Shown here: piece after piece, positions 20,641 to 47,148 of the stretch
Position numbering within the stretch: position 1 is the stretch's first letter
Layout of the letters: every line of letters starts with the position of its first letter
Source: Acidobacteriota bacterium
Lineage (GTDB): Bacteria; Acidobacteriota; Thermoanaerobaculia; Multivoradales; UBA5704
Length of the DNA stretch: 64,000 nucleotides
Direction: 5' to 3'
Assembly (NCBI GenBank): GCA_046765915.1
Contig: JBKPTH010000002.1
Location: 28,552 to 92,551, forward strand
The notes under the pieces: generated by a model
Database searches by the model: none
The model's input: only the letters and a program-made list of their open reading frames with translations
What the model was told of the DNA's origin: nothing
Translations under genes and position numbers: made by a program

Positions 20641-21636
20641 TTATCGGGGCTTCTCCGCGATCATCGACAAAGGCAGGCTCCAGTGCCGGTAGACCCAACC
20701 TCCCGCGGCCCGGCTGCGCAGCAGCCGGTAGATCAGCCCGCGGCCCCAGGACCTACCGGCGAGGCGCCGCAGGAGCCCGGGGGCACCGGCCAGGAAGTCC
20801 TTGTCCGGATACAAGAGGCGGTAGCGCACGGTGCGCGGGGCGAGGCGGCGGCAGCGGAAGCCGTGCCGGCGCAGCGCCGCCCGGTACTCCGCGAGGCTGT
20901 AGAAGTTCTCGTTGATCCCCGCCTCCGTCTCGACGTTGTGCGGCTTGTTGCCCGGGATCGACTCCTTCTTGCAGGCCTCCGAGACGAAGACCAGCCGCCC
21001 TCCCGGCCGCAGCACGCGCCACACCTCGGCGAAGAGGCGGTCGATATCCGAGGAGTGGTGGATCGCCGCGCAACTGAACACGGCGTGCGCCCAGCCGTCG
21101 GCGAGCGGCAGCCGGTGGGCGTCCCCCCGCAGCCGCTCGAAGTAGATGCCGTCCATCTCCAGGAAGATATCAGCGGTCTCCAAGCCGAGAAAGCGGGTGG
21201 TGAGCACGTCGACCGCGACGACCTCGGCGGCCCGGCCGAGGGTCTTGAGGAAGCGCGACGACCAGGTGCGGCCCGCGCCCAGGTCCACGACCCGCTGGCC
21301 CGAGAAGTCGACGTGCTCGAAGATCTGGAAAAAATCGGGAGCCACGTGGGGCCAGGGCTCGTGCGGGAAGCAGGGCAGCGCCGTCATCACCGGGACCAAC
21401 CCTTCGTGCAGTGGCCCGGCGAGCTGGATCCACCCCTTCACCTCGCTGGCCAGGGTCGCGTCGTTGGCATCGAGGAAGTCCGGGATCCCCCGGTGGATGG
21501 GGAAGCCGCGGCCGCACGAACCGCAGCTCAGCTCGCCTTCGCGCACCTCCCGGGCGTCCTCCTCGGCCACGGAGAGGGAGAGGCCCCCGCCGCGGCAGAA
21601 GGGACACCGGATGGAGTTGAGGAATTTCCGCTTCAT
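20641..21636 (-). CDS. class I SAM-dependent methyltransferase with N-terminal Trm112-like zinc ribbon
   Basis: CPFC...CGSC forms a zinc ribbon. The methyltransferase motifs VVDLGAGRTW and VLRPGGRLVF follow. The real start is ATG 21636 (MKRKFLNS). Confidence 0.6.
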   Translation of the reverse strand: MKRKFLNSIRCPFCRGGGLSLSVAEEDAREVREGELSCGSCGRGFPIHRGIPDFLDANDATLASEVKGWIQLAGPLHEGLVPVMTALPCFPHEPWPHVAPDFFQIFEHVDFSGQRVVDLGAGRTWSSRFLKTLGRAAEVVAVDVLTTRFLGLETADIFLEMDGIYFERLRGDAHRLPLADGWAHAVFSCAAIHHSSDIDRLFAEVWRVLRPGGRLVFVSEACKKESIPGNKPHNVETEAGINENFYSLAEYRAALRRHGFRCRRLAPRTVRYRLLYPDKDFLAGAPGLLRRLAGRSWGRGLIYRLLRSRAAGGWVYRHWSLPLSMIAEKPR

Positions 21637-21866
21637 GCTCTGCTCCTCTGCAGAATCGCGGCTTTCTATCACGTTGGCGGCCCGCGCTGAAGCACCGCCT
21701 CCACCCCCAGCGCTCACCGCTCCCCTGTAACGGTTGCGCCTGCCCACACGCCTATCCTCTTGACGCCGAGCTGGGTTGGACATATAATTGAAATTGAGGA
21801 ACCTTCCTTCTGATCGGGCACTATCGACATATCTTCTACAATTTAATCTCTCGAAAGGAGAAAGTT

Positions 21867-22793
21867 GTGAACAAGCTATCCCTCCGTATCCTGTTGCTGG
21901 CATTCCTCGTCCTCCTCACCTTGAGCGCCGCCGCTCAGGCGCAGGCGACCCGCACCTGGGTTTCGGGAGTCGGCGACGACGCCAACCCCTGCAGCCGCAC
22001 GGCGCCCTGCAAGACCTTCGCAGGCGCGATCTCGAAGACAGCGACCGGCGGTGAGATCAACGTCCTCGATCCCGGCGGCTTCGGCGGGGTGACGATCACC
22101 AAGTCGATCACCATCTCCAGCGAGGGGTTCGAGGCTGGCGTGCTGGTCTCCGGCACCAACGCCATCATCATCAACGCGACGACGACCAGCGCCGTGGTGC
22201 TGCGCGGCCTCGACATCGAGGGGTTGGGCACGGGCTTGGTCGGCATCAAAGTGCTCGGCGGCCTGGGCTCTCTCCACGTCGAGAAGTGCACCATCAACAA
22301 CTTCCGTGGGACTAACGGCTCGGGCATCGAGGTCTCGCCGACCACGGCGGGCACGATGAAGTTTTTCGTCAAGGACACGATCGTGCGCAATAACGGCCAG
22401 GGCACGGGGGCGGGCGTCCTCCTGAGTCCCGGCGCGGGCGTCACCGTGAATGCGTCGCTCGACAACGTCCGGGTGGAGAACAACCTCATCGGCTTCAGGA
22501 GTCAAGGCGCCGGCACTTCCAACACCGCGGTGAACCACAGCGTCGCCGCAGGCAACACGAACGCCGGCTTCCAGGCCGCCACCGCCACGGCGACGCTGAA
22601 CGTTGAGGATAGCGTTGCCGCCAGCAACGGGACGGGGGTCGCCTGCGCCAACGGTGTCGTCCGTGTCGGCAACACCGTCTTCTCGTCCAACGGGGCCGCC
22701 GTGTCTGCGGTCGGCACGCTTTGCTTCACGTTCGGGAACAACGACTCCGACGTCGACATCTCGCCGCCGTTCACGCCGATCAACCCCTCGTAG
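21867..22793 (+). CDS. secreted right-handed parallel beta-helix repeat protein
   Basis: There is a signal peptide. Short Gly/Asn/Thr/Val-rich repeats (NN..G....GV) are typical of pectate-lyase-fold beta-helices. Confidence 0.55.
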   Translation: MNKLSLRILLLAFLVLLTLSAAAQAQATRTWVSGVGDDANPCSRTAPCKTFAGAISKTATGGEINVLDPGGFGGVTITKSITISSEGFEAGVLVSGTNAIIINATTTSAVVLRGLDIEGLGTGLVGIKVLGGLGSLHVEKCTINNFRGTNGSGIEVSPTTAGTMKFFVKDTIVRNNGQGTGAGVLLSPGAGVTVNASLDNVRVENNLIGFRSQGAGTSNTAVNHSVAAGNTNAGFQAATATATLNVEDSVAASNGTGVACANGVVRVGNTVFSSNGAAVSAVGTLCFTFGNNDSDVDISPPFTPINPS

Positions 22794-22933: not shown

Positions 22934-24283
22934 GTGCACGAAGCTCGATCGAAGAACGAAACTGCGCTTCGCTTCTGGGAGGAGCGCTACGCGAAGGACC
23001 CCGAGCTGGGTTCGGGCGCGGGATCGAAGGGCGTGTGGCGACTGCGCAAGCTGGATGCGATCGAGCGCGCGCTCAAGCGTCACCCGATCCGTCGAGTGGT
23101 CGACCTCGGATGCGGCGACCTGCAGGTGCTGCGCGAGCTACCGGCGCTCGCCGAGCTCGATTACGTCGGCGTCGACTTCGCGGCGGAGGTCGTGGCCAGG
23201 AACCGCGTCGCGTTTCCGCATCTTCGTTTCGTGCACGCCGATCTCGCGAATCTCGACACGCTGGACCTCGCGCCGGCCGACTTGGTGCTCTGCCTCGACG
23301 TCCTCTTTCACATTCCCGACGACGAGACGTATCGCGGCGTCTGCCGCTATCTCTTCAATTCGGGTGCGCGCGCCGTGATCCTGACCGGCACGGTCGGGCA
23401 TCGGGAATCGAACGGAGTCAACCTCTGGTACCGCGACTTTTGGGAGGAGGCGCGGCACGCCGGAGTTGGACATGTGGGATTCAGCGAGCGGACGTTCCGC
23501 CTGCCGTTCGAACGCCTGTTCAGCTTCGATCTCGTCGAGCCGGGAAGAGACCAGCCGACCGAGATCATCTACGCCTGCACGCCTGATCGGAGCCGACAGC
23601 TACGCGCATCGATCGCGACGCTGCTTCGATCGGGATCGTCGTTCGATCGGATCGTCGTCTTCTGGATCGGCGAAGAGCCCTGCCCACGCTTCGCCGATTC
23701 CCGCGTCACGATTCTCCCGAGCCGCCGGCTCTTCGGCGACTATGTGTTCGGCAACAAGAGCTATCTTTGCACGCGTCGCGCGGAGCGCGTGGTCTTCCTC
23801 GACACGGACACGTTCGTCCTGCGGCCGATCGAGCTGTCGTGGAACGAGCACGACGCCGAGTTCCTTGCTCGCGTTGGCAGCGCTTACAGAGACGAGCGCT
23901 GGAATCCAGCCGCGTGGCGGCAGGGTCTGGCTTCGGTCGGCGTCAAAGACGAAGTGCCGATGTACAACTGCGGGCTGGTCGTATTCCAGAATGGTGCCCA
24001 TCGGCGCTTGACCACCGATTGGGAGGCGCAGATATGGCGGTACCTTCGCGGCGAGCTGCCCCCACCCTGTCCGGACACGCGCATGCCGGAGCAGTGGGCG
24101 TTGGCGCAAGCCCTGGCGAAGCACGCCATTGGGCAGTCTCGCCTCGGCGCGCGCGAACATACCTTCGGGTGGTGCGAAGACCCGACGGAAGAAACGATCG
24201 TGCTGCACACGGGCGCCGACCGCTACGATCACTACTACGGCACGCTCGAGGCGGATCTGTCGGTGGCGAACCTTGACGCTTGA
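22934..24283 (+). CDS. fusion: N-terminal class I SAM methyltransferase and C-terminal nucleotide-diphospho-sugar transferase (GT8-like) domain
   Basis: The methyltransferase motifs VVDLGCGD and LVLCLDVLFHIPD are present. The C-terminal DxD motif FLDTDTFV plus NCGLVVF is GT-A/GT8-like. The GTG start is uncertain. Confidence 0.5.
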   Translation: MHEARSKNETALRFWEERYAKDPELGSGAGSKGVWRLRKLDAIERALKRHPIRRVVDLGCGDLQVLRELPALAELDYVGVDFAAEVVARNRVAFPHLRFVHADLANLDTLDLAPADLVLCLDVLFHIPDDETYRGVCRYLFNSGARAVILTGTVGHRESNGVNLWYRDFWEEARHAGVGHVGFSERTFRLPFERLFSFDLVEPGRDQPTEIIYACTPDRSRQLRASIATLLRSGSSFDRIVVFWIGEEPCPRFADSRVTILPSRRLFGDYVFGNKSYLCTRRAERVVFLDTDTFVLRPIELSWNEHDAEFLARVGSAYRDERWNPAAWRQGLASVGVKDEVPMYNCGLVVFQNGAHRRLTTDWEAQIWRYLRGELPPPCPDTRMPEQWALAQALAKHAIGQSRLGAREHTFGWCEDPTEETIVLHTGADRYDHYYGTLEADLSVANLDA

Positions 24284-24710: not shown

Positions 24711-26576
24711 TTACCTGAAGCCGAGGAATGCCCCCTTCAGCGTACGCTTGAGGCCGATGACCCATTGACGCATGCGCCAGCTCCGGGTACCCGCCATGAC
24801 GTCGACGCGTTCCCGCCAGGATGCCAGCTCCTGATAAAGCCGATCACGTTCAGCGTCTAGACGGGTTCGATCCAGGAGCAACCGGTCGCGCTCGGCGGCC
24901 AGTGACTCCCGCTCGCAAACGGCCGCGGCGAGGCGGCTGGCGGCAAGGTCCCGCTCGTTGGCAAGCGCCTTCAGCTCCTTTCGGAGACTCTCGCTCTCGC
25001 GCCTGGAGGACTGAACCATAATCAGGAGCTGCGGCAGGCGCTGCAAGTAGAGGTCCCGATACTTCTCAACGATGTAGCCTTGCAGAGGCCTTCCGACCTC
25101 GGGGCTCGCCAGGCCCCAATGCATCGATCCGGGACGTACCCTGTACTCGAAGGCGGCCCCGGGCAGGTAATGGAAAAGCCAGCCGCGCTCTGCCACCGAG
25201 ATCCAGAGCTCCCAGTCCTCCCAACCCTGAGAGGGCATGGCGCCGTCGAAGCCGCCACAATCGGACCACGTCTGCTTGCGAATCACGGTGCAGGCGTCGA
25301 TGAAGTTGCCTGTGAGGAGCGTGTCGAGGTCGAACTCCGGGACCTGGACCGCTCCCGAGCGCAGACCGAGCTCACGGCGGTCGCCGTAGACCACCCCCAC
25401 GCGCGGATCCTCATCGAGGACGCGCATCGCCGCCTCTGGGAACCCGGGAAGGAGCCGGTTATCGGAGTCGAGCGGAAGGATGTAGGAGCCGGTCGCCAGC
25501 TCGATTCCCCGGTTGCGCGCTGCGGCGAGCCCCTGGTTTTCCTGGTGCACAACGAAGTAGCCGGCGGCCTCGAGCGCGGCGAGCACCTCCAGGGTCCGCG
25601 GTTGCCGCGAGCCGTCATCGACCACGATCAGTTCATAGAACTCGGGGATGCTGCGCTCGGCGCTGGCCACCGCCTCGACCAGGAGCTCGCCGTGATCGAA
25701 GCAGGGAATGACGACGGAGAGGCGGACCGGCGCCGCGCCGGGGGAGGGGAGCGCCCGGTGATCCTCGGTATGAGGGATCTCCCAGAGCCCGGTGGATGGC
25801 AGGTCGGCCTCCGCGTCGAGCTCGCTCAGCAGCCGCACGGCTTCCGGGGAGGTCGCCGCCACCAGCCCGATGAGGGGATCGGCGCCACCCAGGCTCCGTA
25901 GCCGGCTGCCATCGACGATCTCGCGCAGCCGCTCCTCCGGCAGGTCGAGGCGGAAGCGTTCCGCGAGGAGAGCCCGGAAACTCTCGGGGTGGTGCTGCAG
26001 GGCGTTGACGCCGACCAGAAGCGAGCGCTCCCGGTGGCGCCGATGGAAGTCCAGGAGGTGGCGGTTGTAGAAGGCCCAGATCCGGTATGCGTACTCGGGG
26101 TTGCGGAGGAAGACCTCGGCGCCCAGCCGCTGCATCGAATCGGCGACGTCCCAAGGGTAACGGTAGACACAGAGATAGCGGGCATCCGGCAGGTTCTCGT
26201 CCCAGAAATCCAGCGCCAGCGTCGTGCGCGGGTCTTTCCACCCCCACGGCCGGCCGGTGCCGCGGCGGCTCTCGACCAGGGACCGCGCCTCCTCCCGATA
26301 GAGCGAGAACCGCTGCCGGTCCAGCCGTTCGTTCTCGGTCCACCCCCAGTCGCGGTGGCCGCCGTCGTCCGCGGGCGTGCAGTCCGTGAGCATCCGCTGC
26401 TGGAGGGAGAGGAAGCCGACGTCCTCGAAATAGCCCAGCGGGTTGGCCCGGTCCGCCTCCAGCAGCCGGTCGCCCATGTCCACGCCGGCCGCGGCGGCCA
26501 GGGAGGCGAGCAGCGAGGTGCCGGAGCGGTGCATTCCAGCCACCACCAACGGCCGAGGGATCGCCTGGCGGGACAT
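24711..26576 (-). CDS. fusion: N-terminal sulfotransferase domain, central GT2 domain and C-terminal coiled coil
   Basis: The 5'-PSB-like P-loop is VVAGMHRSGTSLLASL. The GT2 region is VVIPCFDHG...LIVVDDGS...LPLDSDN. The C-terminus has heptad repeats. Confidence 0.65.
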   Translation of the reverse strand: MSRQAIPRPLVVAGMHRSGTSLLASLAAAAGVDMGDRLLEADRANPLGYFEDVGFLSLQQRMLTDCTPADDGGHRDWGWTENERLDRQRFSLYREEARSLVESRRGTGRPWGWKDPRTTLALDFWDENLPDARYLCVYRYPWDVADSMQRLGAEVFLRNPEYAYRIWAFYNRHLLDFHRRHRERSLLVGVNALQHHPESFRALLAERFRLDLPEERLREIVDGSRLRSLGGADPLIGLVAATSPEAVRLLSELDAEADLPSTGLWEIPHTEDHRALPSPGAAPVRLSVVIPCFDHGELLVEAVASAERSIPEFYELIVVDDGSRQPRTLEVLAALEAAGYFVVHQENQGLAAARNRGIELATGSYILPLDSDNRLLPGFPEAAMRVLDEDPRVGVVYGDRRELGLRSGAVQVPEFDLDTLLTGNFIDACTVIRKQTWSDCGGFDGAMPSQGWEDWELWISVAERGWLFHYLPGAAFEYRVRPGSMHWGLASPEVGRPLQGYIVEKYRDLYLQRLPQLLIMVQSSRRESESLRKELKALANERDLAASRLAAAVCERESLAAERDRLLLDRTRLDAERDRLYQELASWRERVDVMAGTRSWRMRQWVIGLKRTLKGAFLGFR

Positions 26577-26695
26577 CGGGCCAGAAGACTAAGGCCAAAC
26601 CGGCAGGGTCGCAACAGCGGAGGGAAGGGATGAATCCAGCGGCCGATTTGTGTTATCCTGTGGTATCCTTATTGGACAGGAGGAGGACCTACACC

Positions 26696-27178
26696 GTGAA
26701 AAGAATCTATGCCTTTAGCGCAGTCGTGCTGACCCTCGCCGCCGTTGCGACGGCATTACCGGATGTCGCCTCGGCCGACGGTCCTTTTCGGTTCTTCGCC
26801 ATCACTCCTTGCCGGATCTTCGATTCGCGGGCTGATGGGGACGGCATCACGCCCTTGGCCAACGGCTTGCACTCGATCCGGGTCCAGGGCATCTGCGGCG
26901 TCCCTGTGGGCGCCAAGGCCGCGGCCCTCAACGTGACGGTTGTCACGCCGACCAAGCCCGGGCACATCACCATCTGGCCGGTCGGCGTATCAGAGCCCAC
27001 GGTGTCGACCCTGAACTTCCTGGCCAACGAGTCGGCGCTGGCGAACGGCGCTATCGTGCCGCTGGGTCCGGACAGCGGGGGCGCGGACGACGTGAGCTTC
27101 CGCTATTCGATGAACCCGGCTCCCGGCACCGGACACATCATCTTCGACGTGACGGGCTACTTCGCCACGGTGCCGTGA
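26696..27178 (+). CDS. small secreted protein consisting of signal peptide plus stand-alone copy of the recurrent domain
   Basis: GTG start preceded by the AGGAGGAGG ribosome-binding site. The signal peptide is followed by PCRIFDSR...CGVP...NVTVV...STLNF...IFDVTGYF. Confidence 0.55.
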   Translation: MKRIYAFSAVVLTLAAVATALPDVASADGPFRFFAITPCRIFDSRADGDGITPLANGLHSIRVQGICGVPVGAKAAALNVTVVTPTKPGHITIWPVGVSEPTVSTLNFLANESALANGAIVPLGPDSGGADDVSFRYSMNPAPGTGHIIFDVTGYFATVP

Positions 27179-29470: not shown

Positions 29471-29773
29471 ATGGAAAGACCCGAGGAGAGGCTGGAAGAG
29501 GCCCAGGTGAGTGGCCGCTCCGCAGCCGAGACGTTCGACCGCAAGCTGCGCGAACGCGAGCTCGCCGAGCGGGAGGCCCGCTTGACCCGCATGGCCTGGG
29601 GAGCCGAGGACGAGCCGCTCGCCCCATGGTCGAACGGACGCGAGCCCAACGACGAGGTCTGGCGCCTGCAACAAGACGTCGAGCGGCTGGCCGCTTTCCA
29701 TCGCGCGGTGCTCCAATCCAAGGGGTGGCGGGTGCTGCAAGCCTTGCGCCGTCCCTTTGGACGGAACTGGTGA
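29471..29773 (+). CDS. small coiled-coil protein
   Basis: GC3 is high. The stop is 2 nt before the next start. The C-terminus has the motif WRVLQALRRP. Confidence 0.35.
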   Translation: MERPEERLEEAQVSGRSAAETFDRKLRERELAEREARLTRMAWGAEDEPLAPWSNGREPNDEVWRLQQDVERLAAFHRAVLQSKGWRVLQALRRPFGRNW

Positions 29774-29775
29774 TG

Positions 29776-40312: not shown

Positions 40313-41229
40313 AGCTGGCGTCACTACCGAGCAGGCGGGTGGAGGCAGCCGACTTGATGGATTGCATCGAATCGTGTCCAGTTTGTCTGTACCGGGGCGA
40401 GCGGCGCCCTGTGCTTCCCCTCCAAGATGCGCCGAGGGTCGACTTTCTCGAATGTCCGGTCTGCCAGGCGTGCTCCGCGTCTCATATGCCCAGCGAAGAG
40501 CTCCTGTCTCGGTTCTACAGCTCGTTTTACGACGGCAAGGAGGAGCACGTGACGTTCGATGGCCCCGAACGCTTTGCCGCACACCTGGTCAAGTACCTGC
40601 GGGTCGCGGCGTCGGTGGAACGCTTTCGCATCCTCGATTTCGGAGGCGGTGACGGCCGTCTGGCGGCAGCGGTTGGCTCCCGACTGCTGAGCAATGGGCC
40701 TTGTCACCATGCCGAGGTCACAGTCGTCGATCCCCACGTAGGTGAGGTGGTCGCTGCGACAGGCATTGCAATACGCCGAGCCGGCGGGCTCGACGAAGAG
40801 CTGGGCGAGTTCGACCTGGTGCTTGCCTCGGGAGTGCTGGAGCATATGCCTCTTTTTCACGACGTGATGAAGCGTCTCGCCGATGCCATAGCTCCCGGAG
40901 GCCACTTCTACGCCAGGACGCCCTGGAACGTTCCCCTGGCCAAGATCCTACCAAGGGCGGACTTGTCCTTTCCGGCGCATGTGCATGATTTCGGTGCACC
41001 TTTCTGGAACCAGGTCGTCCAAACGCTGCAGCTCCCACTCCGCCGCAGACGCTCGCGGCCCTCGATTCGTCAGGTGGGGTTCAGGGAAGCGCCATTACGG
41101 GCTCTGCTGGTGGCCGGGCTCAAGCTGCCCGGCCACATCGAGAGCAGCATCTCGCCAGCAAATCGGCGGAACCGCTTCTACCGGTTTGTTGGTGGCTGGG
41201 AGGTACTCCTGCAACGGCCAGCGAGCTGA
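40309..41229 (+). CDS. class I SAM-dependent methyltransferase with N-terminal CxxC zinc ribbon
   Basis: CPVC...CPVC forms the zinc ribbon. The methyltransferase motifs ILDFGGGDG and LVLASGVLEHMP follow. Confidence 0.55.
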   Translation: MKLASLPSRRVEAADLMDCIESCPVCLYRGERRPVLPLQDAPRVDFLECPVCQACSASHMPSEELLSRFYSSFYDGKEEHVTFDGPERFAAHLVKYLRVAASVERFRILDFGGGDGRLAAAVGSRLLSNGPCHHAEVTVVDPHVGEVVAATGIAIRRAGGLDEELGEFDLVLASGVLEHMPLFHDVMKRLADAIAPGGHFYARTPWNVPLAKILPRADLSFPAHVHDFGAPFWNQVVQTLQLPLRRRRSRPSIRQVGFREAPLRALLVAGLKLPGHIESSISPANRRNRFYRFVGGWEVLLQRPAS

Positions 41230-41291: not shown

Positions 41292-43058
41292 TTACTGCTT
41301 CTCCGCCTTCTCCAGGAGGAGCTGCTTGATCTCGCGTAGCTCTTTCTGCAACTCGGCGATCTGCGCGTCCTTCTCCTGCACTACCTGGTAGAGCCCCTGC
41401 ACCGCCAACATGGTAATGCCTTGGACATCCATCGGGACGATGTACTTTCCATCCGTTCCCAGGCCGAAGGCGCTCTGGAAGTCCTCGACGGTCGGGCCGA
41501 CGTGGCGCATCTTGCGCTCGTCGTCCTTGTAGCTCCACTCCTGGACCGGCAGCTCGGCGAACTTTTGCAGCACGGCGCTCGAATCCACCGGCTGGAAGTT
41601 CTCCTTGAACGTGCGCGAGGAGTTGTTGGTGAACACGCCGTTCACGGTCAGGCCGTTGTTGGCCGTCACCAACCCGCTGGTTCCGTTGATCGTCATGCGG
41701 CTGGCGTTGTTGGTGCCAAAGGTGATGTCGTCGGCTTCTGAACCCGTCCCGATGAGGAGTCCATTGCCGCCAGCGGCGAGGATTTCTTGGCGGTTGCCGA
41801 GCGTTATGCCGTACCGTGTGGCCGTCCTGCCGCTCCCGTGCGAGATTAACTGCGCCAGGCCGCCGGCGTTATTCTTGGCGCGAAAGCCAGCGAGTGCGGA
41901 GGTGCCCGCGCTGGTGTTCTCGACCTGGATAAAGGTGTTCGCATCGACGCTATCGAAGACGTGCAGCTTCTCGTCCGGGGCAGCTATGTTGATGCCCACG
42001 TCGCCATCCGAGCTGATGTCGAGGCTGCTCGTCGGCGCGCCGGGGCGGATGCGGAAGGACAGCTTGGAGCCGCCGGTGACGTCGCGGACGAAGAAGTTGG
42101 CCTCGTTGGCGCCGATGTCCCAGGTCTGGGCGGTGAAGCCGCCGGAGTTGTTCTGCTCGAGGCGGATGGCCGGCGTGTTGGACGTGTTGATGTGGAGGTC
42201 GAGCACCGGGGTGGACGTGCGCAGGCCGATGCGGCCGGTGCTGTCGGCGAAGATCGAGTTGGTCGCGGCGCCGGCGGTGATGGTGAAGGGCACCTTGCTG
42301 CCGGTGATGTCCTCGATGGAGAACTTGCTCGAGCCGCCGCTCGCCGAGTCGTTGGCGGTGAGCTGCCAGTCGTTGGCCGGGAAACCCGCGGACGAGCTGG
42401 TGTCGTCGAACTTGATGCGGGTGTTGTTCTCCTTCAACCGGATGGTGTCGAAGCCGAAGCTCTCGTTGTTGACGCAGTCGAGGCCGACGCACGCGCTGCC
42501 CTGGACGATGAGGTCGTCCGGGATGACCTGGTCCGCCGCGGTGGAGGGCGTCAGCGCCTTCGAGGCGGCCGAGCCCTTGCCGCGCCTCGGCTCATTGGCT
42601 TCCTGCACCAGCGTGCCGTGGTCGATGCTGAAAGCGCCGGACTGCACCATCGGCGTGCGCGGCAGCTTGCCGGCCTCCTGCAGCTTGGCGATGGCGGCGT
42701 CGTCGCCGTTCTGCCGCGCCGCGGCGAGGGCCCGCCGGGTCGCCCGGTCGAGCACCGGCGCGGCGACGAGCTCGTAGCGGTAGGCGCCGTCGGGAAGCGG
42801 CTTGCCGTCGTCGCCGACGGCCTCGAAGACGATGGCGGCGCCGGCGGCGAACTCACGGCGTACGATCAGACCCTCGGGGCCGGACACGGTCAAGGTCATC
42901 TTCTGGAACTCGACCGACGGCTGGAACTGGATCCCGAGCGGGCTGACGCTCGCGGCGGCCAGAGCGGCCGGAGCGGCGGTCGCCGGCGCCGCCAGCAGGG
43001 CCGCGGCGAGGGCCAGGACCGCGATCGCCCCCCAACTGGATTGCGTGCTCCTCATCAT
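41292..43058 (-). CDS. secreted beta-helix/tail-fibre-like protein with C-terminal peptidase-S74 intramolecular chaperone domain
   Basis: A strong GGAGG ribosome-binding site and a signal peptide. The Gly/Ser/Thr/Asn-rich beta repeats are followed by a C-terminal SSRTFKENFQPV...YKDDERKMRHVGPTVEDF...MLAVQGLYQVVQEK-coiled coil matching the endosialidase chaperone domain. Confidence 0.65.
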   Translation of the reverse strand: MMRSTQSSWGAIAVLALAAALLAAPATAAPAALAAASVSPLGIQFQPSVEFQKMTLTVSGPEGLIVRREFAAGAAIVFEAVGDDGKPLPDGAYRYELVAAPVLDRATRRALAAARQNGDDAAIAKLQEAGKLPRTPMVQSGAFSIDHGTLVQEANEPRRGKGSAASKALTPSTAADQVIPDDLIVQGSACVGLDCVNNESFGFDTIRLKENNTRIKFDDTSSSAGFPANDWQLTANDSASGGSSKFSIEDITGSKVPFTITAGAATNSIFADSTGRIGLRTSTPVLDLHINTSNTPAIRLEQNNSGGFTAQTWDIGANEANFFVRDVTGGSKLSFRIRPGAPTSSLDISSDGDVGINIAAPDEKLHVFDSVDANTFIQVENTSAGTSALAGFRAKNNAGGLAQLISHGSGRTATRYGITLGNRQEILAAGGNGLLIGTGSEADDITFGTNNASRMTINGTSGLVTANNGLTVNGVFTNNSSRTFKENFQPVDSSAVLQKFAELPVQEWSYKDDERKMRHVGPTVEDFQSAFGLGTDGKYIVPMDVQGITMLAVQGLYQVVQEKDAQIAELQKELREIKQLLLEKAEKQ

Positions 43059-43396
43059 TTCCTTCCTCCTTCCATGCATACGGCTGGTGTCAAGGGACCG
43101 GACCCACGCGGTCCGGACCCGGAGAGTCCGTCTCAGGCTGGAGCCCACAAGGTGAAGAACCAGGACTCCAAGATAGTGCGAAAAAAGGAAGAAAGAGAGA
43201 CACCCCGTTCGCCCTCCGGCCGGCCTGGTACCACAGGCGCGTCGAACCGAGATCCGTTACAGGGCAGCGATGAACGCGGCTGGAGGTCGTGCGAGCCCTG
43301 GTGTCAATATAAACGAAATCCACGCGCTTGTCGATTAGCCCTCACTGTTGAATCGAGTGTGCTGTGCAAACGATAAAAGTGATCAATTCAAAGCCC

Positions 43397-45379
43397 TCAA
43401 GGAACCGGCCGCGCGAGGAGCGAGAAGATTTCTCCGTACACCGGATGAAGGTCGGCGGCGATCCCCAGCTCCAGGCGCTCGATGGCGGCCGTCACCCTAC
43501 TCTCGCCATTCTCCTCCGGCAGGGGCCAATGCAGGGTCAGCCGGTTCAGCCCGGGGCGCAGGCCGCCGCGCTCCACCCGCAGCCACGCCCGGGACCAGCG
43601 CTCCTCGGCTGCCGCCCCGCCCACTGCGGCGCCGTTGACGGTCACGCCGATCCGTCCCCGGCGGCTCCCTCCGGCGAGGGGGGAAGGGAGGCGGGCCGTC
43701 AGCTCCAGCTCGACGTCGCACTGGGCGTCGCAGATCAGACAGAAAGAGGACTCCGGCCAGGGGCAGCGGAGAAAAGCCCGCTCGGGAAGGTCGGCGAAGC
43801 GCATGGCGTCGGGATAGAACCTCTCCAGCGGTTCCCAGAGATACGGCGGCTGGGTGAGATCGGTGCCTTCGCCGCGGATCGCGAGGTGGCGGAGCAGGAG
43901 AGCGGCGGTCTGCTGCCGCGCCGGCCGGCCCCGCCGCTCCAGGACCTCGCAGAGGGCCTCGATCAGGTCGGCGTCTAGATGGTCCCAGCGCCACCCGTGC
44001 TGCAGCAGGAGGCGATAGGGCGAGCCGAGGTTGCGCTGCTGGGCCGCCGTCAGCACCGCCGGACAGGGGGCGCAGCGGGCGGCGATCAGATCGAGCATGG
44101 CCCCCTCGATCCCTGGCGAGACATCGAGGGCCGCTTCGCACCAATGCTCCAGCAGCGGGCGCTTGGAGCCCACCGGCAGCAGACGATGGGCGGTGTGGAC
44201 GGCGGCGCCCAGGCGGGCGGTGGCCTCCGCCTCAGGCGAGATCTCCGTGGGAAGAAGGAGCCGATGCCAATCGATCTTCTCCTCGAGCATCCCCGAGAGA
44301 TCCAGCACCTCGGAGGCCACGGCCGCCATGGCGACCTGGATACCTTCGAGGGTGAGATGACAGTAGTCGAGGAAGAGGCGGCGGTCCGGAAGGGGCGAGC
44401 CGGTATGCGCCGCGAAAACCTGCCGCAGGTCGACGCGGGAGAAGCCATGCCGGCGGCCGGCGCCCTCGAGGATGTCCCGCGCGATCGTGGTGGCCTGGGG
44501 AGCGCTCAGGAAGGCGAGGGTGGGGTAGGCGGCGGCGTCGATCTCGGCGAGAGCGGCGCGCCTCGCCTCGTCGTGATTTCCCAGCCCCATCCACGCCCGG
44601 GCGGCCAGACGCCAGGAGGAGGAGCAGGCGCCGCCGTCCAGGTCCCGCATCGCCTGAGCGGCGGCGAGCGCTCCTTTGAAGTCCTGTCGCGCGAGCCGTT
44701 CCCGGGCTTCCTCGTAGAGGCCATGCCAGCGGGCGATGCCATCGCCCGGCAGCCAGACCGGCGGCTGGCGGGTCTCCCAGTCGGCGAGGTTGACCTCGGG
44801 GAGGACGAGGACGACCGGGATGCGGACGGTCCGCGCGATCATGGCGATGAAATCCAGGACCGCCTCCGCCTTCTGCCGCAGCTCCTGCCCGGCGAGCCGC
44901 ACCGGCCCCGCCATCCCTTCCTTCCGCAGCGCGTGGGCGTAGCGCCGGCGGGCCGCGGCCGAGGGAGCGTAGGGAGAGATCTCCGGCGTCTCCAGCAGGT
45001 TCCAGTTGTTGCCGGTGAACAGCACCAGCACGTCCGGATCGATCTGCAGGGAGGTCCGCACCGTCGCGGCGAGGGAGGCGAGGGTCTCGTTGGTGCGCGC
45101 GAGGTCGATCACCTCGAAATGGGCCTCGCCGCCCGCGGCCTGGAGCTGCGCCTCGAGGACCCGCGCCGGCGTCAGGTGGGGCGCATAGAGGTAGCCGGCC
45201 GCCACGGACTCGCCGAAGAAGGCCACCCGCAGCGGCAGCTCTGATTTTTTCGGGCGCAGCACCCTCGCCGCCGCGTAGTGGTCCCCCAGCGGCAGGGGAT
45301 CGGGACGGACGAAGGCGAGCTCGCCGTCGATCTCCCGCGGCTGCCAGATGCTGATCGGCTCGGGCGGCCGCGTCTTCAT
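43397..45379 (-). CDS. SGNH/GDSL-fold hydrolase-like protein with large C-terminal domain
   Basis: Block I is FFGESVAAGY, block III is FTGNNW and block V is DYCHL. It shares an ATGA overlap with the carbamoyltransferase. The 1395 aa track ORF merges two genes. Confidence 0.5.
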   Translation of the reverse strand: MKTRPPEPISIWQPREIDGELAFVRPDPLPLGDHYAAARVLRPKKSELPLRVAFFGESVAAGYLYAPHLTPARVLEAQLQAAGGEAHFEVIDLARTNETLASLAATVRTSLQIDPDVLVLFTGNNWNLLETPEISPYAPSAAARRRYAHALRKEGMAGPVRLAGQELRQKAEAVLDFIAMIARTVRIPVVLVLPEVNLADWETRQPPVWLPGDGIARWHGLYEEARERLARQDFKGALAAAQAMRDLDGGACSSSWRLAARAWMGLGNHDEARRAALAEIDAAAYPTLAFLSAPQATTIARDILEGAGRRHGFSRVDLRQVFAAHTGSPLPDRRLFLDYCHLTLEGIQVAMAAVASEVLDLSGMLEEKIDWHRLLLPTEISPEAEATARLGAAVHTAHRLLPVGSKRPLLEHWCEAALDVSPGIEGAMLDLIAARCAPCPAVLTAAQQRNLGSPYRLLLQHGWRWDHLDADLIEALCEVLERRGRPARQQTAALLLRHLAIRGEGTDLTQPPYLWEPLERFYPDAMRFADLPERAFLRCPWPESSFCLICDAQCDVELELTARLPSPLAGGSRRGRIGVTVNGAAVGGAAAEERWSRAWLRVERGGLRPGLNRLTLHWPLPEENGESRVTAAIERLELGIAADLHPVYGEIFSLLARPVP

Positions 45380-47148
45380 ACGAAGGTGTAGAGATCCTCG
45401 CTGATCGCGGATCTCTCGGTTGCGAAGCCGCTGCGCGCCGGTTCCCGCCAGGCCGGCAGCAGCTCGGCCCAGTTGCCGGGCAGACTCTCGCGATCGATCA
45501 GGAAGTCCTCCAGGACCAGGGCGTCGATGCCCGACACCCCCATGCAGAAGAGAGCATCCACCGGCGAGCGGACGATCGGCTCGCCGCGCACGTTGAACGA
45601 GGTGTTCACCAGCAGGGGACAGCCGGTCCGCCGGTGGAAGGCCTCGAGCAGGGCGGCGAAGCGGGGAGCGGTCTCCGGCTCGACGGTCTGCGGGCGCGCC
45701 GAGCCGTCCACGTGAGTGACCGCGGGCAGGCCGAGCGGCGAGATCACCCGGCAGGTCGCGAGCATGAAGGGCGAGGCCTGGCCGAGATCGAAGTGCTCCC
45801 CGGCGTGGGCGGCCAGGACGCTCGGCGCGAAGGGACGGAACGCCTCCCGCTTCTTGACCAGCCGGTTGAGGCGGTCGCGCATGCCCGGTTCGCGCGCGTC
45901 GGCGAGCAGGCTGCGGGCGCCCAGGGCCCGCGGGCCGAGCTCCATGGCGCCGTGGAACCAGCCGACGACCTGGCCGGCCGCCAGTCGCCCGGCTACGGTT
46001 TCCAGCAGGGCGTCCTCGCGTCCTCGGAAATCCTCGCCCGGCAGGCCCGTGGCCGCGAGCAGATCCGCGATCTCCTCTGCCGTCCAGCTCGGCCCGAGAA
46101 AGACGTGGCGGAGAGGTGCGGTCCCGGGGTGCCGCCCCGTCATCTGGACATGGGCGAGCGCGGCGGCGCCCAGGCAGCCTCCTGAGTCGCCGGCCGCCGG
46201 CTGCACGAACAGGCGCTCGAACGGACCTTCGCGCCGGATGCGGCCGTTGGCCACCACGTTCAAGGCGACGCCTCCCGCCATGCAGAGATCGGGCAGGCCG
46301 GTCCGCGCGTGGAGGTAACGGACCTTCTCGAGCAGGATCTCTTCCAGCACCACCTGGAGGCTGCGCGCCACGTCCTGATGAAACGGGGTGATCTCCTCCT
46401 CCCGGCGTCGCGGCGGCTGGCCGAAGAGACGGGGCAGGGCGTCCGAGTACATGCGCGAGCCGCGGATGAAATCGAAATAGTCCAGATCGAGCCGGAACTG
46501 CCCGTCCGCCGCGGCGGAGACGAGCTGGCGCATCTCGCCGACGTAGCGCGGCTCGCCATAGGGAGCGAGCCCCATCACCTTGTACTCGCCGTCGTTGACC
46601 GCGAAGCCGAGATAGGCGGTGAGGGTGGAGTAGAGGAGGCCGAGCGAATGCGGGAACTCCACCTCCTCGAACGGCTCGATCGCCGTCCCGGCCGCCCGGC
46701 CGTAGGTGGTGGTGGCCCACTCGCCGACGCCGTCCACGGTGAGGACGGCGGCGGCGGGAAAACCGGAGAAGAAGAAGGCGCTGGCGGCGTGGGAGAGGTG
46801 ATGATCGAAGGTGAGGAGCGGCCCCTCGTAGCCCAGGTCTTCGCGGATGGCGCGCTCCGGGCGGCCGGGATCGCGCCAGGCGGAATCGCCCGCCGCGGCC
46901 GCCGGCACGCCCGCCCGGAGCTGGCGGGCCAGCTTCTTCGCCGGCGACTCGTAAAAGGCCACGCAGTCGACGTCGGCGATGCCGAGGCCGCCCCGGCGCA
47001 GACACCAGCGGAAGGCGGCGACGGGCAGCCGCGGATCGTGCTTGACCCGCGAGAACCTCTCCTCCTCCGCCGCGGCCACCAGGCGGCCGTCGCGCATCAG
47101 GCAGCAGGCGGATTCGTGGAAGAAGGCGGAGATGCCGATGACGTTCAC
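45376..47148 (-). CDS. NodU/CmcH-family carbamoyltransferase
   Basis: The N-terminus NVIGISAFFHESACCLMRDGRLVAAAEEERFSRVKHD matches this family. The start is GTG 47148, because the upstream ATG extension has AT-rich atypical codons. Confidence 0.8.
   Translation of the reverse strand: MNVIGISAFFHESACCLMRDGRLVAAAEEERFSRVKHDPRLPVAAFRWCLRRGGLGIADVDCVAFYESPAKKLARQLRAGVPAAAAGDSAWRDPGRPERAIREDLGYEGPLLTFDHHLSHAASAFFFSGFPAAAVLTVDGVGEWATTTYGRAAGTAIEPFEEVEFPHSLGLLYSTLTAYLGFAVNDGEYKVMGLAPYGEPRYVGEMRQLVSAAADGQFRLDLDYFDFIRGSRMYSDALPRLFGQPPRRREEEITPFHQDVARSLQVVLEEILLEKVRYLHARTGLPDLCMAGGVALNVVANGRIRREGPFERLFVQPAAGDSGGCLGAAALAHVQMTGRHPGTAPLRHVFLGPSWTAEEIADLLAATGLPGEDFRGREDALLETVAGRLAAGQVVGWFHGAMELGPRALGARSLLADAREPGMRDRLNRLVKKREAFRPFAPSVLAAHAGEHFDLGQASPFMLATCRVISPLGLPAVTHVDGSARPQTVEPETAPRFAALLEAFHRRTGCPLLVNTSFNVRGEPIVRSPVDALFCMGVSGIDALVLEDFLIDRESLPGNWAELLPAWREPARSGFATERSAISEDLYTFV

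Follow-up and report, generated by a model that had tools for sequence, protein, structure and literature searches.

A dense set of genes for building and decorating sugars lies in the genome of an uncultured soil acidobacterium (a MAG of the class Thermoanaerobaculia, Acidobacteriota), and raises the question whether they make one heavily decorated surface polymer or belong to separable pathways. A sequence-only reading of positions 20641-47148 had favoured the former, namely an O-antigen/EPS-like island with the decoration logic of Nod factors. We analysed the whole surrounding stretch of 64,000 nucleotides (the window). The genes form a real cluster, an envelope-glycan supercluster of ~44 kb (about 3560-47148; Table 1), and the genetic capacity read from it earlier (sulfation, carbamoylation, methylation, an amino sugar and a ManNAc(A)-type precursor) was borne out. 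We put the probability at roughly 0.6 that the supercluster consists of juxtaposed, separable modules conserved throughout the class, rather than being a single strain-specific O-antigen operon. Nearly all gene calls of the sequence-only reading held, while several placements did not; its glycan region and tailoring capacity were supported, its Nod logic, O-antigen island and single product were not.

Table 1. Genes of the supercluster, with positions in the window and the evidence for each assignment.
Position	Strand	Product	Evidence or property
3560..5734	+	GT2-GT4 two-domain glycosyltransferase, copy a	Pfam Glycos_transf_2 + Glycos_transf_1/Glyco_transf_4
5731..6960	+	GT4-like glycosyltransferase	Glyco_trans_1_4, E=3e-7
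7228..8724	-	GT2-methyltransferase fusion, single ORF, 498 aa	Glycos_transf_2 13-180, Methyltransf_23 277-418
8811..10226	-	Polytopic membrane protein TM550, GT-C-like (topology only)	at least 7 TM segments
10398..12452	+	Polytopic membrane protein, GT-C-like (topology only)	12 TM
12460..14991	-	YfhO-family GT-C membrane glycosyltransferase	Pfam YfhO, E=1e-13; 13 TM segments
14988..16229	-	NDP-sugar dehydrogenase, nearest UDP-ManNAc dehydrogenase	TIGR03026, 361 vs cut-off 190
16219..17202	-	SDR epimerase/dehydratase	Pfam Epimerase, E=2e-41
17181..18434	-	GT2, polyprenyl-phosphate-sugar synthase type (weak), N-terminal extension	
18434..19402	-	SDR NAD-dependent epimerase	Pfam Epimerase, E=5e-56
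19432..20550	-	WecB, non-hydrolysing UDP-GlcNAc 2-epimerase	TIGR00236, 429 vs cut-off 210 (NCBIfam equivalog, passed)
20641..21636	-	Trm112-like zinc ribbon + class I methyltransferase	Pfam Trm112p + Methyltransf_11
21867..22793	+	Secreted right-handed beta-helix protein	signal peptide seen in sequence
22934..24283	+	Methyltransferase-GT8-like fusion	methyltransferase domain E~1e-9
24711..26576	-	Sulfotransferase-GT2-coiled-coil fusion (ST-GT2-CC)	Sulfotransfer_3 + Glycos_transf_2
26630..27178	+	Small secreted protein, conserved with module A	one N-terminal TM/signal segment
27269..29299	+	GT-C (PMT_2-like) membrane glycosyltransferase, module A	PMT_2, E=3e-5; 9 TM segments
29471..29773	+	Small helical protein, 100 aa, module A	41-54% conserved in L001, L003-L005
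29773..30069	+	Small helical protein, 98 aa, module A	translationally coupled (TGATG)
30056..31906	+	GT2-GT4 two-domain glycosyltransferase, copy b	Pfam domains
31922..32863	+	LPG_synthase_TM (MprF flippase-domain-like) membrane protein, first gene of module B	Pfam E=2e-26; 8 TM
32923..34716	+	GT-C (PMT_2-like) membrane glycosyltransferase, module B	PMT_2, E=8e-8; 11 TM
34737..35891	+	WecE-type dTDP-4-amino-4,6-dideoxyhexose transaminase	NF008687, 542 vs 375; TIGR02379, 491 vs 435
35893..36510	-	Stand-alone class I methyltransferase, 205 aa	separate frame from adjoining GT2
36510..37448	-	ArnC/PgfS-like polyprenyl-phosphate GT2 + 2 C-terminal TM	NF007986 full-length, 163 bits vs cut-off 529
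37430..38152	-	WbqC-family protein	Pfam WbqC, E=2e-73
38205..39335	+	Stand-alone sulfotransferase ST2	Sulfotransfer_3, E=3e-14; Sulfotransfer_1, E=9e-10
39332..40312	+	DegT-fold (sugar-aminotransferase-like) protein, previously unannotated	ATGA-coupled to ST2
40309..41229	+	Class I methyltransferase, 306 aa	Methyltransf_23, E=6e-12
41292..43148	-	Secreted tail-fibre-like protein, C-terminal S74 intramolecular-chaperone domain	Peptidase_S74, E=2e-10
43397..45379	-	SGNH-fold protein, 660 aa, helical insert + large C-terminal region	ATGA-coupled to carbamoyltransferase
45376..47148	-	O-carbamoyltransferase (NodU/CmcH/TobZ family)	Carbam_trans_N, E=1e-69; Carbam_trans_C, E=1e-63

The modules are conserved and separable

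Module A comprises ST-GT2-CC, a GT-C and a GT2-GT4 protein. Module B comprises a flippase-like protein, a GT-C, WecE, a methyltransferase, an ArnC-like GT2, WbqC, a sulfotransferase, the DegT-fold protein and the S74 fibre. The module A neighbourhood recurs in relatives (loci L001, L003-L005, L009-L011, L029, L041 and L046), and module B was found in L007, L008 and L089. One relative has a contig of 8.38 Mb that carries module A at 2.46 Mb and, ~2 Mb away, module B at 4.53 Mb; this copy of module B lacks the adjoining carbamoyltransferase/SGNH pair. Genes of the island are 50-83% identical among many Thermoanaerobaculia MAGs (all homologues used are MAG-derived, with taxa taken from the names of the match sources). 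The GC content is somewhat reduced across 30-42 kb of the window; this is a trait of module B in three genomes and no sign of recent transfer here.

Genes of the upstream block and module A

The upstream glycosyltransferases have counterparts in L003: a 708-aa homologue of GT2-GT4 copy a, a 414-aa gene with 59% identity to the GT4-like gene and a 497-aa homologue of the GT2-methyltransferase fusion (77% identity); the GT2-GT4 and GT2-methyltransferase proteins have homologues of equal length in related loci and are no artefacts. Two of the five GT-C-like proteins in the window gave no family match whatsoever. TM550 has no Pfam or PDB match; among the divergent neighbours of ST-GT2-CC in distant loci its family is the most frequent (adjoining the fusion in about 22 of 80 loci). 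Homologues of the 12-TM protein, 50-61% identical, lie near module A in L001, L005, L010, L011 and L046.

In the nucleotide-sugar operon, the dehydrogenase has UDP-ManNAc dehydrogenase as its best NCBIfam match and scores 339 against the WecC equivalog cut-off of 459, which it does not reach. This gene and wecB, from which the sequence-only reading had predicted the ManNAc(A)-type residue, are both real but lie at 14988-20550, outside 20641-47148. The GT2 of the operon is TGATG-coupled to the upstream SDR gene, and its best NCBIfam matches (ArnC, dolichyl-P hexose transferase and PpgS) are all far under cut-off. Coupling by ATGA and TGATG was seen within operons.

Both sulfotransferases called from the sequence carry Pfam Sulfotransfer_3. 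In ST-GT2-CC this domain covers residues 9-184 (E=2.3e-9, 38 bits vs a cut-off of 27) and is followed by Glycos_transf_2 at 287-397 (E=1.6e-23); the AlphaFold model (pLDDT 90) adds one helix of 89 residues (507-595) and another at the terminus. The motifs GMHRSGTS and WGWKDPR are conserved, and the sulfotransferase profile matches the solved PAPS sulfotransferases OLS and CurM. Since a Foldseek search with the model listed GT2 matches alone and no sulfotransferase-fold match, the sulfotransferase fold is assigned from Pfam, the conserved motifs and the sequence profile. The fusion has more than 120 near-full-length homologues (42-81% identity), with a GT-C-like membrane protein and a beta-helix protein as conserved partners. 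Homologues of the beta-helix protein carry Pfam Beta_helix and adjoin ST-GT2-CC or module B. Within module A, the small secreted protein (69-81% identity in L001-L005) and the 100-aa helical protein have no Pfam match, the GT-C is 73-80% identical in relatives and GT2-GT4 copy b has homologues of 614-616 aa (75-78% identity).

The methyltransferase-GT8-like fusion is rare and is represented by six independent full-length cluster representatives. Its C-terminal domain falls short of the Pfam GT8 threshold in its own sequence; 38 of 46 homologues do reach it, the profile matches glycogenin, LgtC and WbbM, and D85/D87 (DxD) are invariant in the alignment. Because ST-GT2-CC, the methyltransferase-GT8-like protein and GT2-GT4 all have independent full-length homologues, these fusions are not frameshift artefacts. 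Other architectures had been misplaced: of the two GT2-GT4 genes only copy b lies inside 20641-47148, the genuine GT2-methyltransferase fusion is at 7228-8724, outside, and the pair at 35893-37448 consists of two genes with a TGATG overlap. At least five methyltransferases had been claimed for the interval; it contains four (20641-21636, 22934-24283, 35893-36510 and 40309-41229), the fifth being the GT2 fusion. The first of these has 330-aa homologues in L003, L004, L009 and L025 (68-87% identity). RlmL (47832-48971) is a housekeeping rRNA methylase.

Genes of module B and the carbamoyltransferase pair

The DegT aminotransferase and the WbqC-like protein noted earlier are both present by Pfam. 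The LPG_synthase_TM protein is present in the module B copies at L007, L008 and L089, and the same three loci hold the ArnC-like GT2 (69-83% identity), ST2 (51-68%) and the S74 protein (60-70%), which also matches PHROG tail fibres. The GT-C is 60% and the 205-aa methyltransferase 81% identical in L089, whereas the 306-aa methyltransferase occurs in L008 and is absent from L007 and L089. The polyprenyl-phosphate assignments of this GT2 and of the one in the nucleotide-sugar operon are both under NCBIfam equivalog cut-offs. In ST2 the motifs GMQRSGTT and RDPRD are visible. The second DegT-fold protein gave no Pfam match; its AF2 model (pLDDT 96) matches DegT, WbpE, ArnB and WecE in Foldseek (E~3e-15, TM 0.66). 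It has 305 homologues, and K136, D107 and D108 are invariant.

The carbamoyltransferase call stood, with both Pfam domains and full-length alignment to NovN, GdmN and TobZ (E=1e-102 to 1e-81). These are likewise O-carbamoyltransferases of two domains, YrdC-like and Kae1-like; the enzyme here differs in being translationally coupled to the SGNH-fold protein. The SGNH protein is real as well: the window copy is under the Lipase_GDSL_2 threshold (E=2e-4, 22 bits vs 32.9), most of the more than 120 homologues that share at least 67% identity with it carry PF13472, and conservation of blocks I, III and V with the catalytic Ser/Asn/Asp-His (S58, G123/N124, D338/H341) was seen across 60 homologues. 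The two genes adjoin in L007 and L008, and the pair is 68-78% identical in Thermoanaerobaculia.

In a crude hydropathy scan, none of the sulfo-, methyl- and carbamoyltransferases, nor the SGNH protein, was predicted to have a signal peptide or to span the membrane, each showing no more than a single isolated hydrophobic stretch in its interior, which suggests that they are cytoplasmic. The scan of GC3-supported ORFs throughout the window found neither PAPS-synthesis genes nor Wzx, Wzy, Wzz, Wza, Wzm, Wzt, a ligase or an initiating phosphoglycosyltransferase; the window instead holds five polytopic GT-C-like proteins, two polyprenyl-phosphate-type GT2s and one flippase-like protein.

Proposed mechanism and comparison with known systems

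We propose that the operon at 14988-20550 would supply UDP-ManNAc(A)-type and other precursors. The glycosyltransferases of module A and the upstream block (two GT2-GT4, GT4, GT2-methyltransferase and methyltransferase-GT8) may assemble and also methylate, on the cytoplasmic side of the membrane, a glycan linked to polyprenol, with GT2-GT4 copy b as the candidate polymerase. ST-GT2-CC would add a sugar and then sulfate that sugar with PAPS. Its order of catalytic domains, long coiled coil and basic terminal helix resembles coiled-coil terminators and rulers of ABC-transporter-dependent O-polysaccharides: E. coli O9a WbdD, Klebsiella O12 WbbB and those of K. pneumoniae O4/O7 (PMC3482155, PMC11231755). 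As in those systems, it is accompanied by multi-domain polymerase glycosyltransferases (GT2-GT4), and some close relatives have a Wzm gene at a distance of a few genes. However, no sequence homology with WbdD or WbbB was detected, the partners are a GT-C-like and a beta-helix protein, and the window has no Wzm/Wzt. Of 88 related loci, just 9 have a Wzm homologue within 10 kb of the fusion, which makes for a weak connection to ABC-transporter-type assembly. The capping candidate here is also a PAPS sulfotransferase; to our knowledge, no sulfate terminator has been described.

Module B could be a self-contained three-component extracytoplasmic glycosylation system. WecE would make dTDP-4-amino-4,6-dideoxyhexose, to be tailored in the cytoplasm by the DegT-fold protein, WbqC, the methyltransferase(s) and the second sulfotransferase; the ArnC-like GT2 would load the tailored sugar onto polyprenyl phosphate, the LPG_synthase_TM protein, by analogy only, might flip it across the membrane, and the PMT_2-type GT-C would pass it to an acceptor outside. 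Known systems of this type (GtrA/B/C, ArnC/ArnE-F/ArnT, CsbB/GtcA/YfhO and C. youngae PPPRS/MATE/GT136; PMC11127046) likewise combine a polyprenyl-phosphate-type GT2 with C-terminal TM, a polytopic candidate flippase, a GT-C and sugar-precursor enzymes, and YfhO and other GT-C-like proteins occur elsewhere in the island. Module B differs in its flippase candidate, which is MprF-type and not GtrA, MATE or ArnEF, in its predicted donor, a tailored 4-amino-4,6-dideoxyhexose, and in containing a sulfotransferase, cytoplasmic as predicted, as well as a second protein of DegT fold. Neither ArnA nor ArnD is present here, and the aminotransferase is WecE-type, not ArnB. The carbamoyltransferase and SGNH protein may form a third unit that adds O-carbamoyl and handles O-acyl groups.

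Two sulfotransferases of different subfamilies, many glycosyltransferases and a methyltransferase in one polysaccharide cluster are also features of the synechan (xss) sulfated-EPS cluster of Synechocystis PCC 6803 (PMC8205485) and the predicted wps-1 cluster of Actinoplanes (PMC13390465). Those clusters are Wzx/Wzy-dependent with stand-alone sulfotransferases, whereas in this acidobacterial host one sulfotransferase forms a fusion with a GT2 and a coiled coil, and its counterpart belongs to a lipid-carrier/GT-C module. As in enterobacterial common antigen, there is a WecC-like dehydrogenase alongside WecB and WecE, both of which pass their NCBIfam cut-offs, but WecA, WecD, WecF, WecG, WzxE and WzyE are absent and WecE lies in a different module from WecB/WecC.

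Alternative explanations

The PMT_2 and YfhO GT-Cs might instead O-glycosylate the co-encoded secreted proteins (S74 fibre, beta-helix and the 182-aa protein); the product would then be not a polysaccharide or LPS but glycoprotein fibres, sulfated or methylated, or a coat resembling an S-layer. PMT_2 belongs to the protein-O-mannosyltransferase/ArnT superfamily, the S74 gene adjoins module B in all four genomes examined, beta-helix genes lie in or beside module B or beside ST-GT2-CC at about 20 loci, and the 182-aa protein is always upstream of the module A GT-C. Adjacency, however, does not identify an acceptor, and beta-helix or tail-fibre-like proteins are equally typical of glycan-binding or glycan-cleaving functions. 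A coiled-coil glycosyltransferase and two-domain GT2-GT4 enzymes suggest polymer synthesis, and the Pfam domain scan found no oligosaccharyltransferase (PglB, PglL or AglB). We regard this as a serious though unlikely alternative. It partly overlaps with the modular reading, the acceptor being the sole difference.

A single island making one sulfated, carbamoylated and methylated amino-sugar polymer with ManNAc(A) is quite improbable, even though every enzyme class is present and contiguous in the source genome and the lowered GC had pointed the same way. The lack of assembly genes among the GC3-supported ORFs scanned does not fit a classical O-antigen/EPS island, the high conservation across MAGs is unlike the hypervariable O-antigen loci, and the separation of the modules in one relative makes a single, fully decorated product an unsafe assumption. 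The Nod-factor analogy, which invoked NodU, NodH and NodS, is superficial: NodU-family carbamoyltransferases, PAPS sulfotransferases and SAM methyltransferases are shared at the family level, but the NCBIfam equivalogs fail by a wide margin (NodU 151 bits vs a cut-off of 1000, NoeE 26 vs 500), NodH, NodS, NodC, NodA and NodB were not found, and the substrates almost certainly differ. That the tailoring genes (carbamoyltransferase, SGNH, sulfotransferase and methyltransferases) serve a small-molecule or glycolipid natural product, such as an aminoglycoside-like compound or lipo-oligosaccharide, is very hard to credit, since the nearest solved relatives are antibiotic-tailoring (NovN, GdmN, TobZ) or PKS-associated (OLS, CurM) but antibiotic enzymes are over-represented in the PDB, the window has no PKS, NRPS, NodC/NodA/NodB or aminoglycoside core genes, and the neighbours are GT-Cs, polyprenyl-P GT2s and multi-domain polymer-type glycosyltransferases.

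On the preferred reading of separable, class-wide modules, the cluster predicts sulfated cell-surface sugars in this soil acidobacterium, and such sugars have seldom been reported in bacteria beyond the cyanobacteria.

Gene content of the glycan region

Because the window has a G+C content of about 68%, raw lists of open reading frames were crowded with shadow frames. Reading frames were picked by third-position GC and then annotated with Pfam and NCBIfam. The glycan genes span roughly 3560 to 47148 and encode cytoplasmic multi-domain Leloir glycosyltransferases, nucleotide-sugar enzymes (WecB, an NDP-sugar dehydrogenase, two SDRs and a WecE-type transaminase), tailoring enzymes, polytopic membrane proteins and three secreted proteins. 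Neither a signal peptide nor a membrane-spanning topology was predicted for any of the tailoring enzymes. Many gene junctions show ATGA or TGATG overlaps, indicating translationally coupled operons. The gene set is real and was mostly read correctly in the earlier sequence-only reading, while its interpretation is to be revised.

Some of the genes lie elsewhere than that reading had placed them. It counted at least five methyltransferases in 20641-47148; we found four genes there, the fifth being the GT2-methyltransferase fusion to the left. The WecB-like and dehydrogenase operon is present as claimed, but is likewise outside this interval. WecB scores above its NCBIfam equivalog cut-off and the dehydrogenase is nearest to UDP-ManNAc dehydrogenase.

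The left flank holds two genes unrelated to the glycan genes, and on the right an RNA-binding protein gene directly adjoins the carbamoyltransferase gene. Further right, a tyrosine recombinase and a stretch of lower GC (58925-64000) may represent one border of a mobile element. No tRNA was found there, and scanning the whole window for Rfam families and tRNAs gave no matches.

Positions of features in and beside the glycan region, with family evidence
Feature	Position (strand)	Evidence or remark
Left flank	18-3272	Glucose/sorbosone dehydrogenase-like protein; reprolysin-type (M12B) metalloprotease
GT2-GT4 fusion, second copy	3560-5734
GT2-methyltransferase fusion	7228-8724
TM550 polytopic membrane protein	8811-10226 (-)
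WecB-like and dehydrogenase operon	14988-20550
Methyltransferase-GT8-like fusion	22934-24283
Sulfotransferase-GT2-coiled-coil fusion (ST-GT2-CC)	24711-26576 (-)
182-aa secreted protein	26630-27178
Polytopic membrane protein	27269-29299	PMT_2, 24.5 bits, just under the gathering cut-off
100-aa protein of module A	29471-29773
Polytopic membrane protein	32923-34716	PMT_2, 33.2 bits, passing the 26.1-bit gathering cut-off
Predicted WecE-type aminotransferase	34737-35891	NF008687, 542 bits (cut-off 375); TIGR02379, 491 (435); ArnB model, 215 (631)
ArnC-like GT2	36510-37448	ArnC, 163 bits, and PgfS, 130 bits, end-to-end, under equivalog cut-offs
Stand-alone sulfotransferase (ST2)	38205-39335 (+)	Sulfotransfer_3, 54 bits (cut-off 27); Sulfotransfer_1, 38.8 (22)
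DegT-fold protein, 326 aa	39332-40312	No Pfam match
S74 tail-fibre-like secreted protein	41292-43148 (-)
SGNH-fold protein	43397-45379 (-)	Lipase_GDSL_2, 22.2 bits, below the 32.9 cut-off
O-carbamoyltransferase	45376-47148 (-)	Pfam Carbam_trans_N and Carbam_trans_C
RRM_1 RNA-binding protein, bacterial	47337-47825 (+)	Long Gly/Tyr/Arg-rich tail
Sulfate ABC importer, complete	50221-55157 (+)	Sbp, CysT and CysW above NCBIfam cut-offs; CysA-like ATPase, 305 bits (343)
Tyrosine recombinase	58925-59962 (+)	Phage_integrase and Phage_int_SAM_4
Low-GC stretch	60000-64000	GC 0.52-0.58; short ORFs including a TonB_C protein

Fusion proteins have independent homologues

The sequence-only reading listed several uncommon fusions. 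More than 120 database clusters, with identities of 42-81%, contain the full-length ST-GT2-CC architecture, which also occurs in 473 or more stretches of GTDB species-representative genomes. All of the best 80 stretches come from MAGs, mostly of Thermoanaerobaculia or other Acidobacteriota and a few of other phyla; Chthoniobacterales, Bryobacterales, Blastocatellia, Anaerolineae, Eremiobacterota, Betaproteobacteria and one Schlesneria bin are also represented. Where a source name was given, the homologues of three window proteins came from MAGs of Thermoanaerobaculia or Acidobacteriota, and the window is assigned to an uncultured Thermoanaerobaculia (Acidobacteriota) genome. The GT2-GT4 and GT2-methyltransferase fusions have homologues of equal length in related loci. 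The methyltransferase-GT8-like fusion is rare; six 50%-identity cluster representatives are full-length, and its GT8-like domain has relatives that mostly occur as stand-alone proteins of 230-300 aa. These independent homologues of full or equal length indicate that the fusions are genuine and not artefacts.

Both claimed GT2-GT4 proteins exist, but the second copy is outside 20641-47148. As for the GT2-methyltransferase architecture, one such fusion is real, whereas at 35893-37448 the GT2 and the methyltransferase are encoded by separate genes. A frameshifted fusion at 35893-37682 was ruled out by the TGATG stop/start overlap between them and by the occurrence of both genes as stand-alone genes in relatives.

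Two predicted PAPS-dependent sulfotransferases

Both sulfotransferases that had been noticed earlier score above Pfam cut-offs and carry PAPS-binding motifs. ST-GT2-CC matched Sulfotransfer_3 with 38.3 bits (gathering cut-off 27; E=2.3e-9) and Glycos_transf_2 with E=1.6e-23. In an AlphaFold2 model built from 56 homologues (pLDDT 90) the sulfotransferase and GT2 domains are both globular; a single helix of 89 residues (507-595) and then a basic terminal helix come after them. In this model the 5'-PSB motif GMHRSGTS forms a strand (10-14) and then a helix (17-29), and the 3'-PB motif WGWKDPRT a strand (111-114) and then a helix (116-128). Conservation of the two motifs is at least 80-95% in 118 aligned homologues. 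Since a Foldseek search with the full model returned only GT2 structures in the top 50 and did not inform on the sulfotransferase domain, a sequence profile of this domain alone was used, which matched the solved OLS sulfotransferase 4gox (E=3e-7) and the CurM sulfotransferase. An exact-sequence look-up of ST-GT2-CC was empty because the deposited gene model (P0001) starts 14 codons later.

The stand-alone protein ST2 contains the motifs GMQRSGTT and RDPRD (LILRDPRDVVAS). Judged from these matches, the sulfotransferase domain of ST-GT2-CC and ST2 are members of the PAPS-dependent sulfotransferase family (Pfam Sulfotransfer_3/1), and both are predicted to transfer sulfate from PAPS to a glycan. 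Genes for PAPS synthesis were not found among the GC3-supported ORFs of the window.

In a related locus (L003, 13316-14716) a sulfatase gene is two genes away from the ST-GT2-CC homologue, and in another homologue (P0005, 1084 aa) sulfatase/phosphodiesterase domains are part of the same protein. These arrangements hint at a coupling of sulfation and desulfation.

Other tailoring and sugar enzymes

The carbamoyltransferase of the earlier reading was confirmed by its two Pfam domains and aligns end-to-end with NovN, GdmN and TobZ. For the claimed SGNH hydrolase the result is mixed: the window copy is under the Pfam cut-off, but PF13472 is precomputed on most homologues and the catalytic blocks are conserved. 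Across 60 homologues, conservation is at least 98% for block I Ser (S58, FFGES), block III Gly-Asn (G123-N124, TGNNW) and block V Asp-x-x-His (D338/H341, LDYCH). In the methyltransferase-GT8-like protein the methyltransferase domain is clear in Pfam. The C-terminal domain of the window copy matched Glyco_transf_8 with E=0.16; 38 of 46 homologues of this domain match PF01501 (best E=4e-9), its profile matches glycogenin (E=3e-4), LgtC and WbbM, and the DxD motif is invariant. The aminotransferase noticed earlier scores above two NCBIfam cut-offs, which points to a WecE-type enzyme (dTDP-4-amino-4,6-dideoxyhexose transaminase).

The 326-aa protein translationally coupled to ST2 belongs to a new family without a Pfam model. 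Its predicted structure (pLDDT 96) has the fold of sugar aminotransferases of the DegT/WbpE/ArnB/WecE type (Foldseek E~3e-15, TM 0.66), with an N terminus that is about 50 residues shorter. K136 and D107/D108 are invariant in the family and located at the expected cofactor positions. They also paired with the DegT Lys and Asp in hhalign, where three-sequence profiles (DegT-like against WecE) gave a probability of only 18%; this weak comparison is superseded by the structure prediction. Nearly all of the 305 detectable homologues are from Thermoanaerobaculia. Cysteines C32, C110 and C112 are also invariant (alignment A3), in a DDKCLCxPDC motif beside the cofactor Asp, which suggests a metal or redox site atypical for sugar aminotransferases.

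The region consists of separable conserved modules

When related contigs were compared, at least three separable units were resolved. Module A comprises ST-GT2-CC and, divergently, the 182-aa secreted protein, a PMT_2 GT-C protein, two helical proteins of about 100 aa and a GT2-GT4 fusion; it is collinear in ten related loci at 41-81% identity. Module B starts with LPG_synthase_TM, a PMT_2 GT-C protein, WecE, a methyltransferase, the ArnC-like GT2 and WbqC, continues divergently with ST2 and the 326-aa protein, and ends with the S74 fibre. It is collinear in three other genomes at 37-83% identity. The carbamoyltransferase-SGNH pair adjoins the S74 gene in the window and in two of these three genomes, and not in the third. 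On one contig of 8.38 Mb the two modules are far apart (A at 2.46 Mb, B at 4.53 Mb), so that their adjacency in the window is not obligatory.

The 182-aa secreted protein, encoded upstream of the module A GT-C protein, is 69-81% identical across relatives, like the enzymes, and matched no family. The 100-aa protein of module A ends in ...SKGWRVLQALRRPFGR and ST-GT2-CC (C terminus at 24711-24800) in ...TRSWRMRQWVIGLKRTLKG; these similar basic W-R helices might dock on the membrane or on a common partner. In distant loci, two types of protein recur beside ST-GT2-CC, a secreted beta-helix protein (about 20 loci) and a polytopic protein of the TM550 type (about 22).

That the lower-GC stretch at 30-42 kb was acquired recently by horizontal transfer was ruled out by a module B GC of 0.64-0.65 in three genomes: the low GC of module B (0.64) is common to its copies elsewhere and gives no evidence of recent transfer. 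A phage origin of the S74 protein was also rejected, as PHROG matches cover only the C-terminal chaperone and fibre segments and the gene, whose product has a signal peptide, is chromosomal and keeps its synteny in four genomes.

Membrane proteins and export systems

Five polytopic membrane proteins of 460-843 aa are encoded in the region. Two match PMT_2, one matches YfhO above its Pfam cut-off and two have no family match; the PMT_2 and YfhO proteins have 9-13 TM segments. The PMT_2 and YfhO matches argue for a GT-C transferase of three-component glycosylation in the region. The region also contains two GT2s, putatively of the polyprenyl-phosphate type, and the ArnC-like one has two C-terminal TM segments. 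A flippase of the GtrA, MATE or ArnEF type is not present, and the LPG_synthase_TM protein holds the flippase position in all four copies of module B.

The window copy of TM550 and six homologues had no Pfam match, and a 19-sequence profile had no PDB match, so that its GT-C nature is suggested by topology. In distant loci (L055-L087, e.g. L055:6793-9528) TM550-type proteins carry an extra, well conserved C-terminal region of about 400 aa, which is absent from the window copy and has no Pfam or PDB match.

The sole ABC ATPase of the window is part of the sulfate importer, which lies 3 kb from the island and is an ordinary assimilation operon. This CysA-like ATPase has a C-terminal universal-stress-protein domain fused to it. 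The importer could possibly supply sulfate for glycan sulfation.

Comparison with known systems

The sequence-only reading had compared the tailoring enzymes with the decoration of Nod factors; every equivalog test of this idea failed. The carbamoyltransferase scores 151.5 bits against the NodU equivalog (NF041651; cut-off 1000), a likeness at family level only, NodC reached 21-26 bits (550) and NoeE 26 (500), and NodA, NodB and NodS had no NCBIfam matches in the window. Lipid A modification by the Arn (L-Ara4N) pathway does not fit either, as the ArnA formyltransferase and the deformylase are not present.

An O-antigen/EPS-like island, as proposed earlier, is also not what we found. None of the GC3-supported ORFs that were scanned in the window encodes Wzx, Wzy, Wzz, Wza, an O-antigen ligase or an initiating phosphoglycosyltransferase, and none encodes an ABC2_membrane protein (Wzm) or Wzt. 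The region instead consists of conserved, separable modules centred on GT-C proteins and is neither Nod-like nor a classical O-antigen island. For annotation, this corrects the notion of one Nod-like decorated O-antigen.

In functional terms the region comes closest to three-component GT-C systems, coiled-coil terminator complexes and the synechan cluster, and it differs from all of them. The components of module B are those of a three-component extracytoplasmic glycosylation system (framework in PMC11127046). The layout of ST-GT2-CC is similar to that of coiled-coil terminator proteins in ABC-transporter-dependent O-polysaccharide assembly (PMC3482155, PMC11231755); this resemblance is treated as an analogy and not as membership. 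Of 88 related loci, only 9 have a Wzm homologue within 10 kb of ST-GT2-CC, and none is in the window. The synechan cluster shares with the region the presence of two sulfotransferases.

Discussion

PAPS, SAM and carbamoyl phosphate are cytoplasmic. As the tailoring enzymes are apparently soluble, modification should occur before export: sulfation, methylation and carbamoylation would take place on nucleotide- or lipid-linked intermediates. Module B would then deliver a tailored 4-amino-4,6-dideoxyhexose as a three-component extracytoplasmic system, with LPS, a polymer or co-encoded secreted proteins as candidate acceptors.

We propose, with a probability of only about one in five, that Thermoanaerobaculia and some other soil phyla have two undescribed routes for the sulfation of envelope glycoconjugates, a lipid-carrier donor and a sulfate cap. 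In the first, a 4-amino-4,6-dideoxyhexose may be made, sulfated and methylated in the cytoplasm by module B; this sugar may cross the membrane on polyprenyl phosphate and be attached outside by the GT-C protein. Possible acceptors are LPS and, among the co-encoded proteins, the S74 fibre or the beta-helix proteins. Such a sulfated lipid-carrier donor would account for sulfate on extracytoplasmic glycans despite cytoplasmic PAPS. In the second route, ST-GT2-CC may cap and measure glycan chains with sulfate; if true, the sulfate cap would be a new terminator chemistry beside methyl, methyl-phosphate and Kdo.

Bacterial sulfated polysaccharides are still described as essentially cyanobacterial (PMC8205485, PMC13390465), which makes a class-wide pair of sulfotransferase-bearing modules in Acidobacteriota noteworthy. 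Our literature search found nothing relevant on Thermoanaerobaculia sulfotransferases or on WbqC. Both sulfotransferases are encoded within conserved glycan modules, in a soil class that is abundant and almost uncultured, and the sulfated Acidobacteriota glycans expected from these two modules are a prediction from sequence. If confirmed, the sulfotransferase-glycosyltransferase fusion, the DegT-fold family and the conserved carbamoyltransferase-SGNH pair would be a supply for glycoengineering. Sulfated, methylated and carbamoylated surface glycans would then be common in soil Acidobacteriota, with a bearing on metal binding, desiccation tolerance, aggregation and phage recognition.
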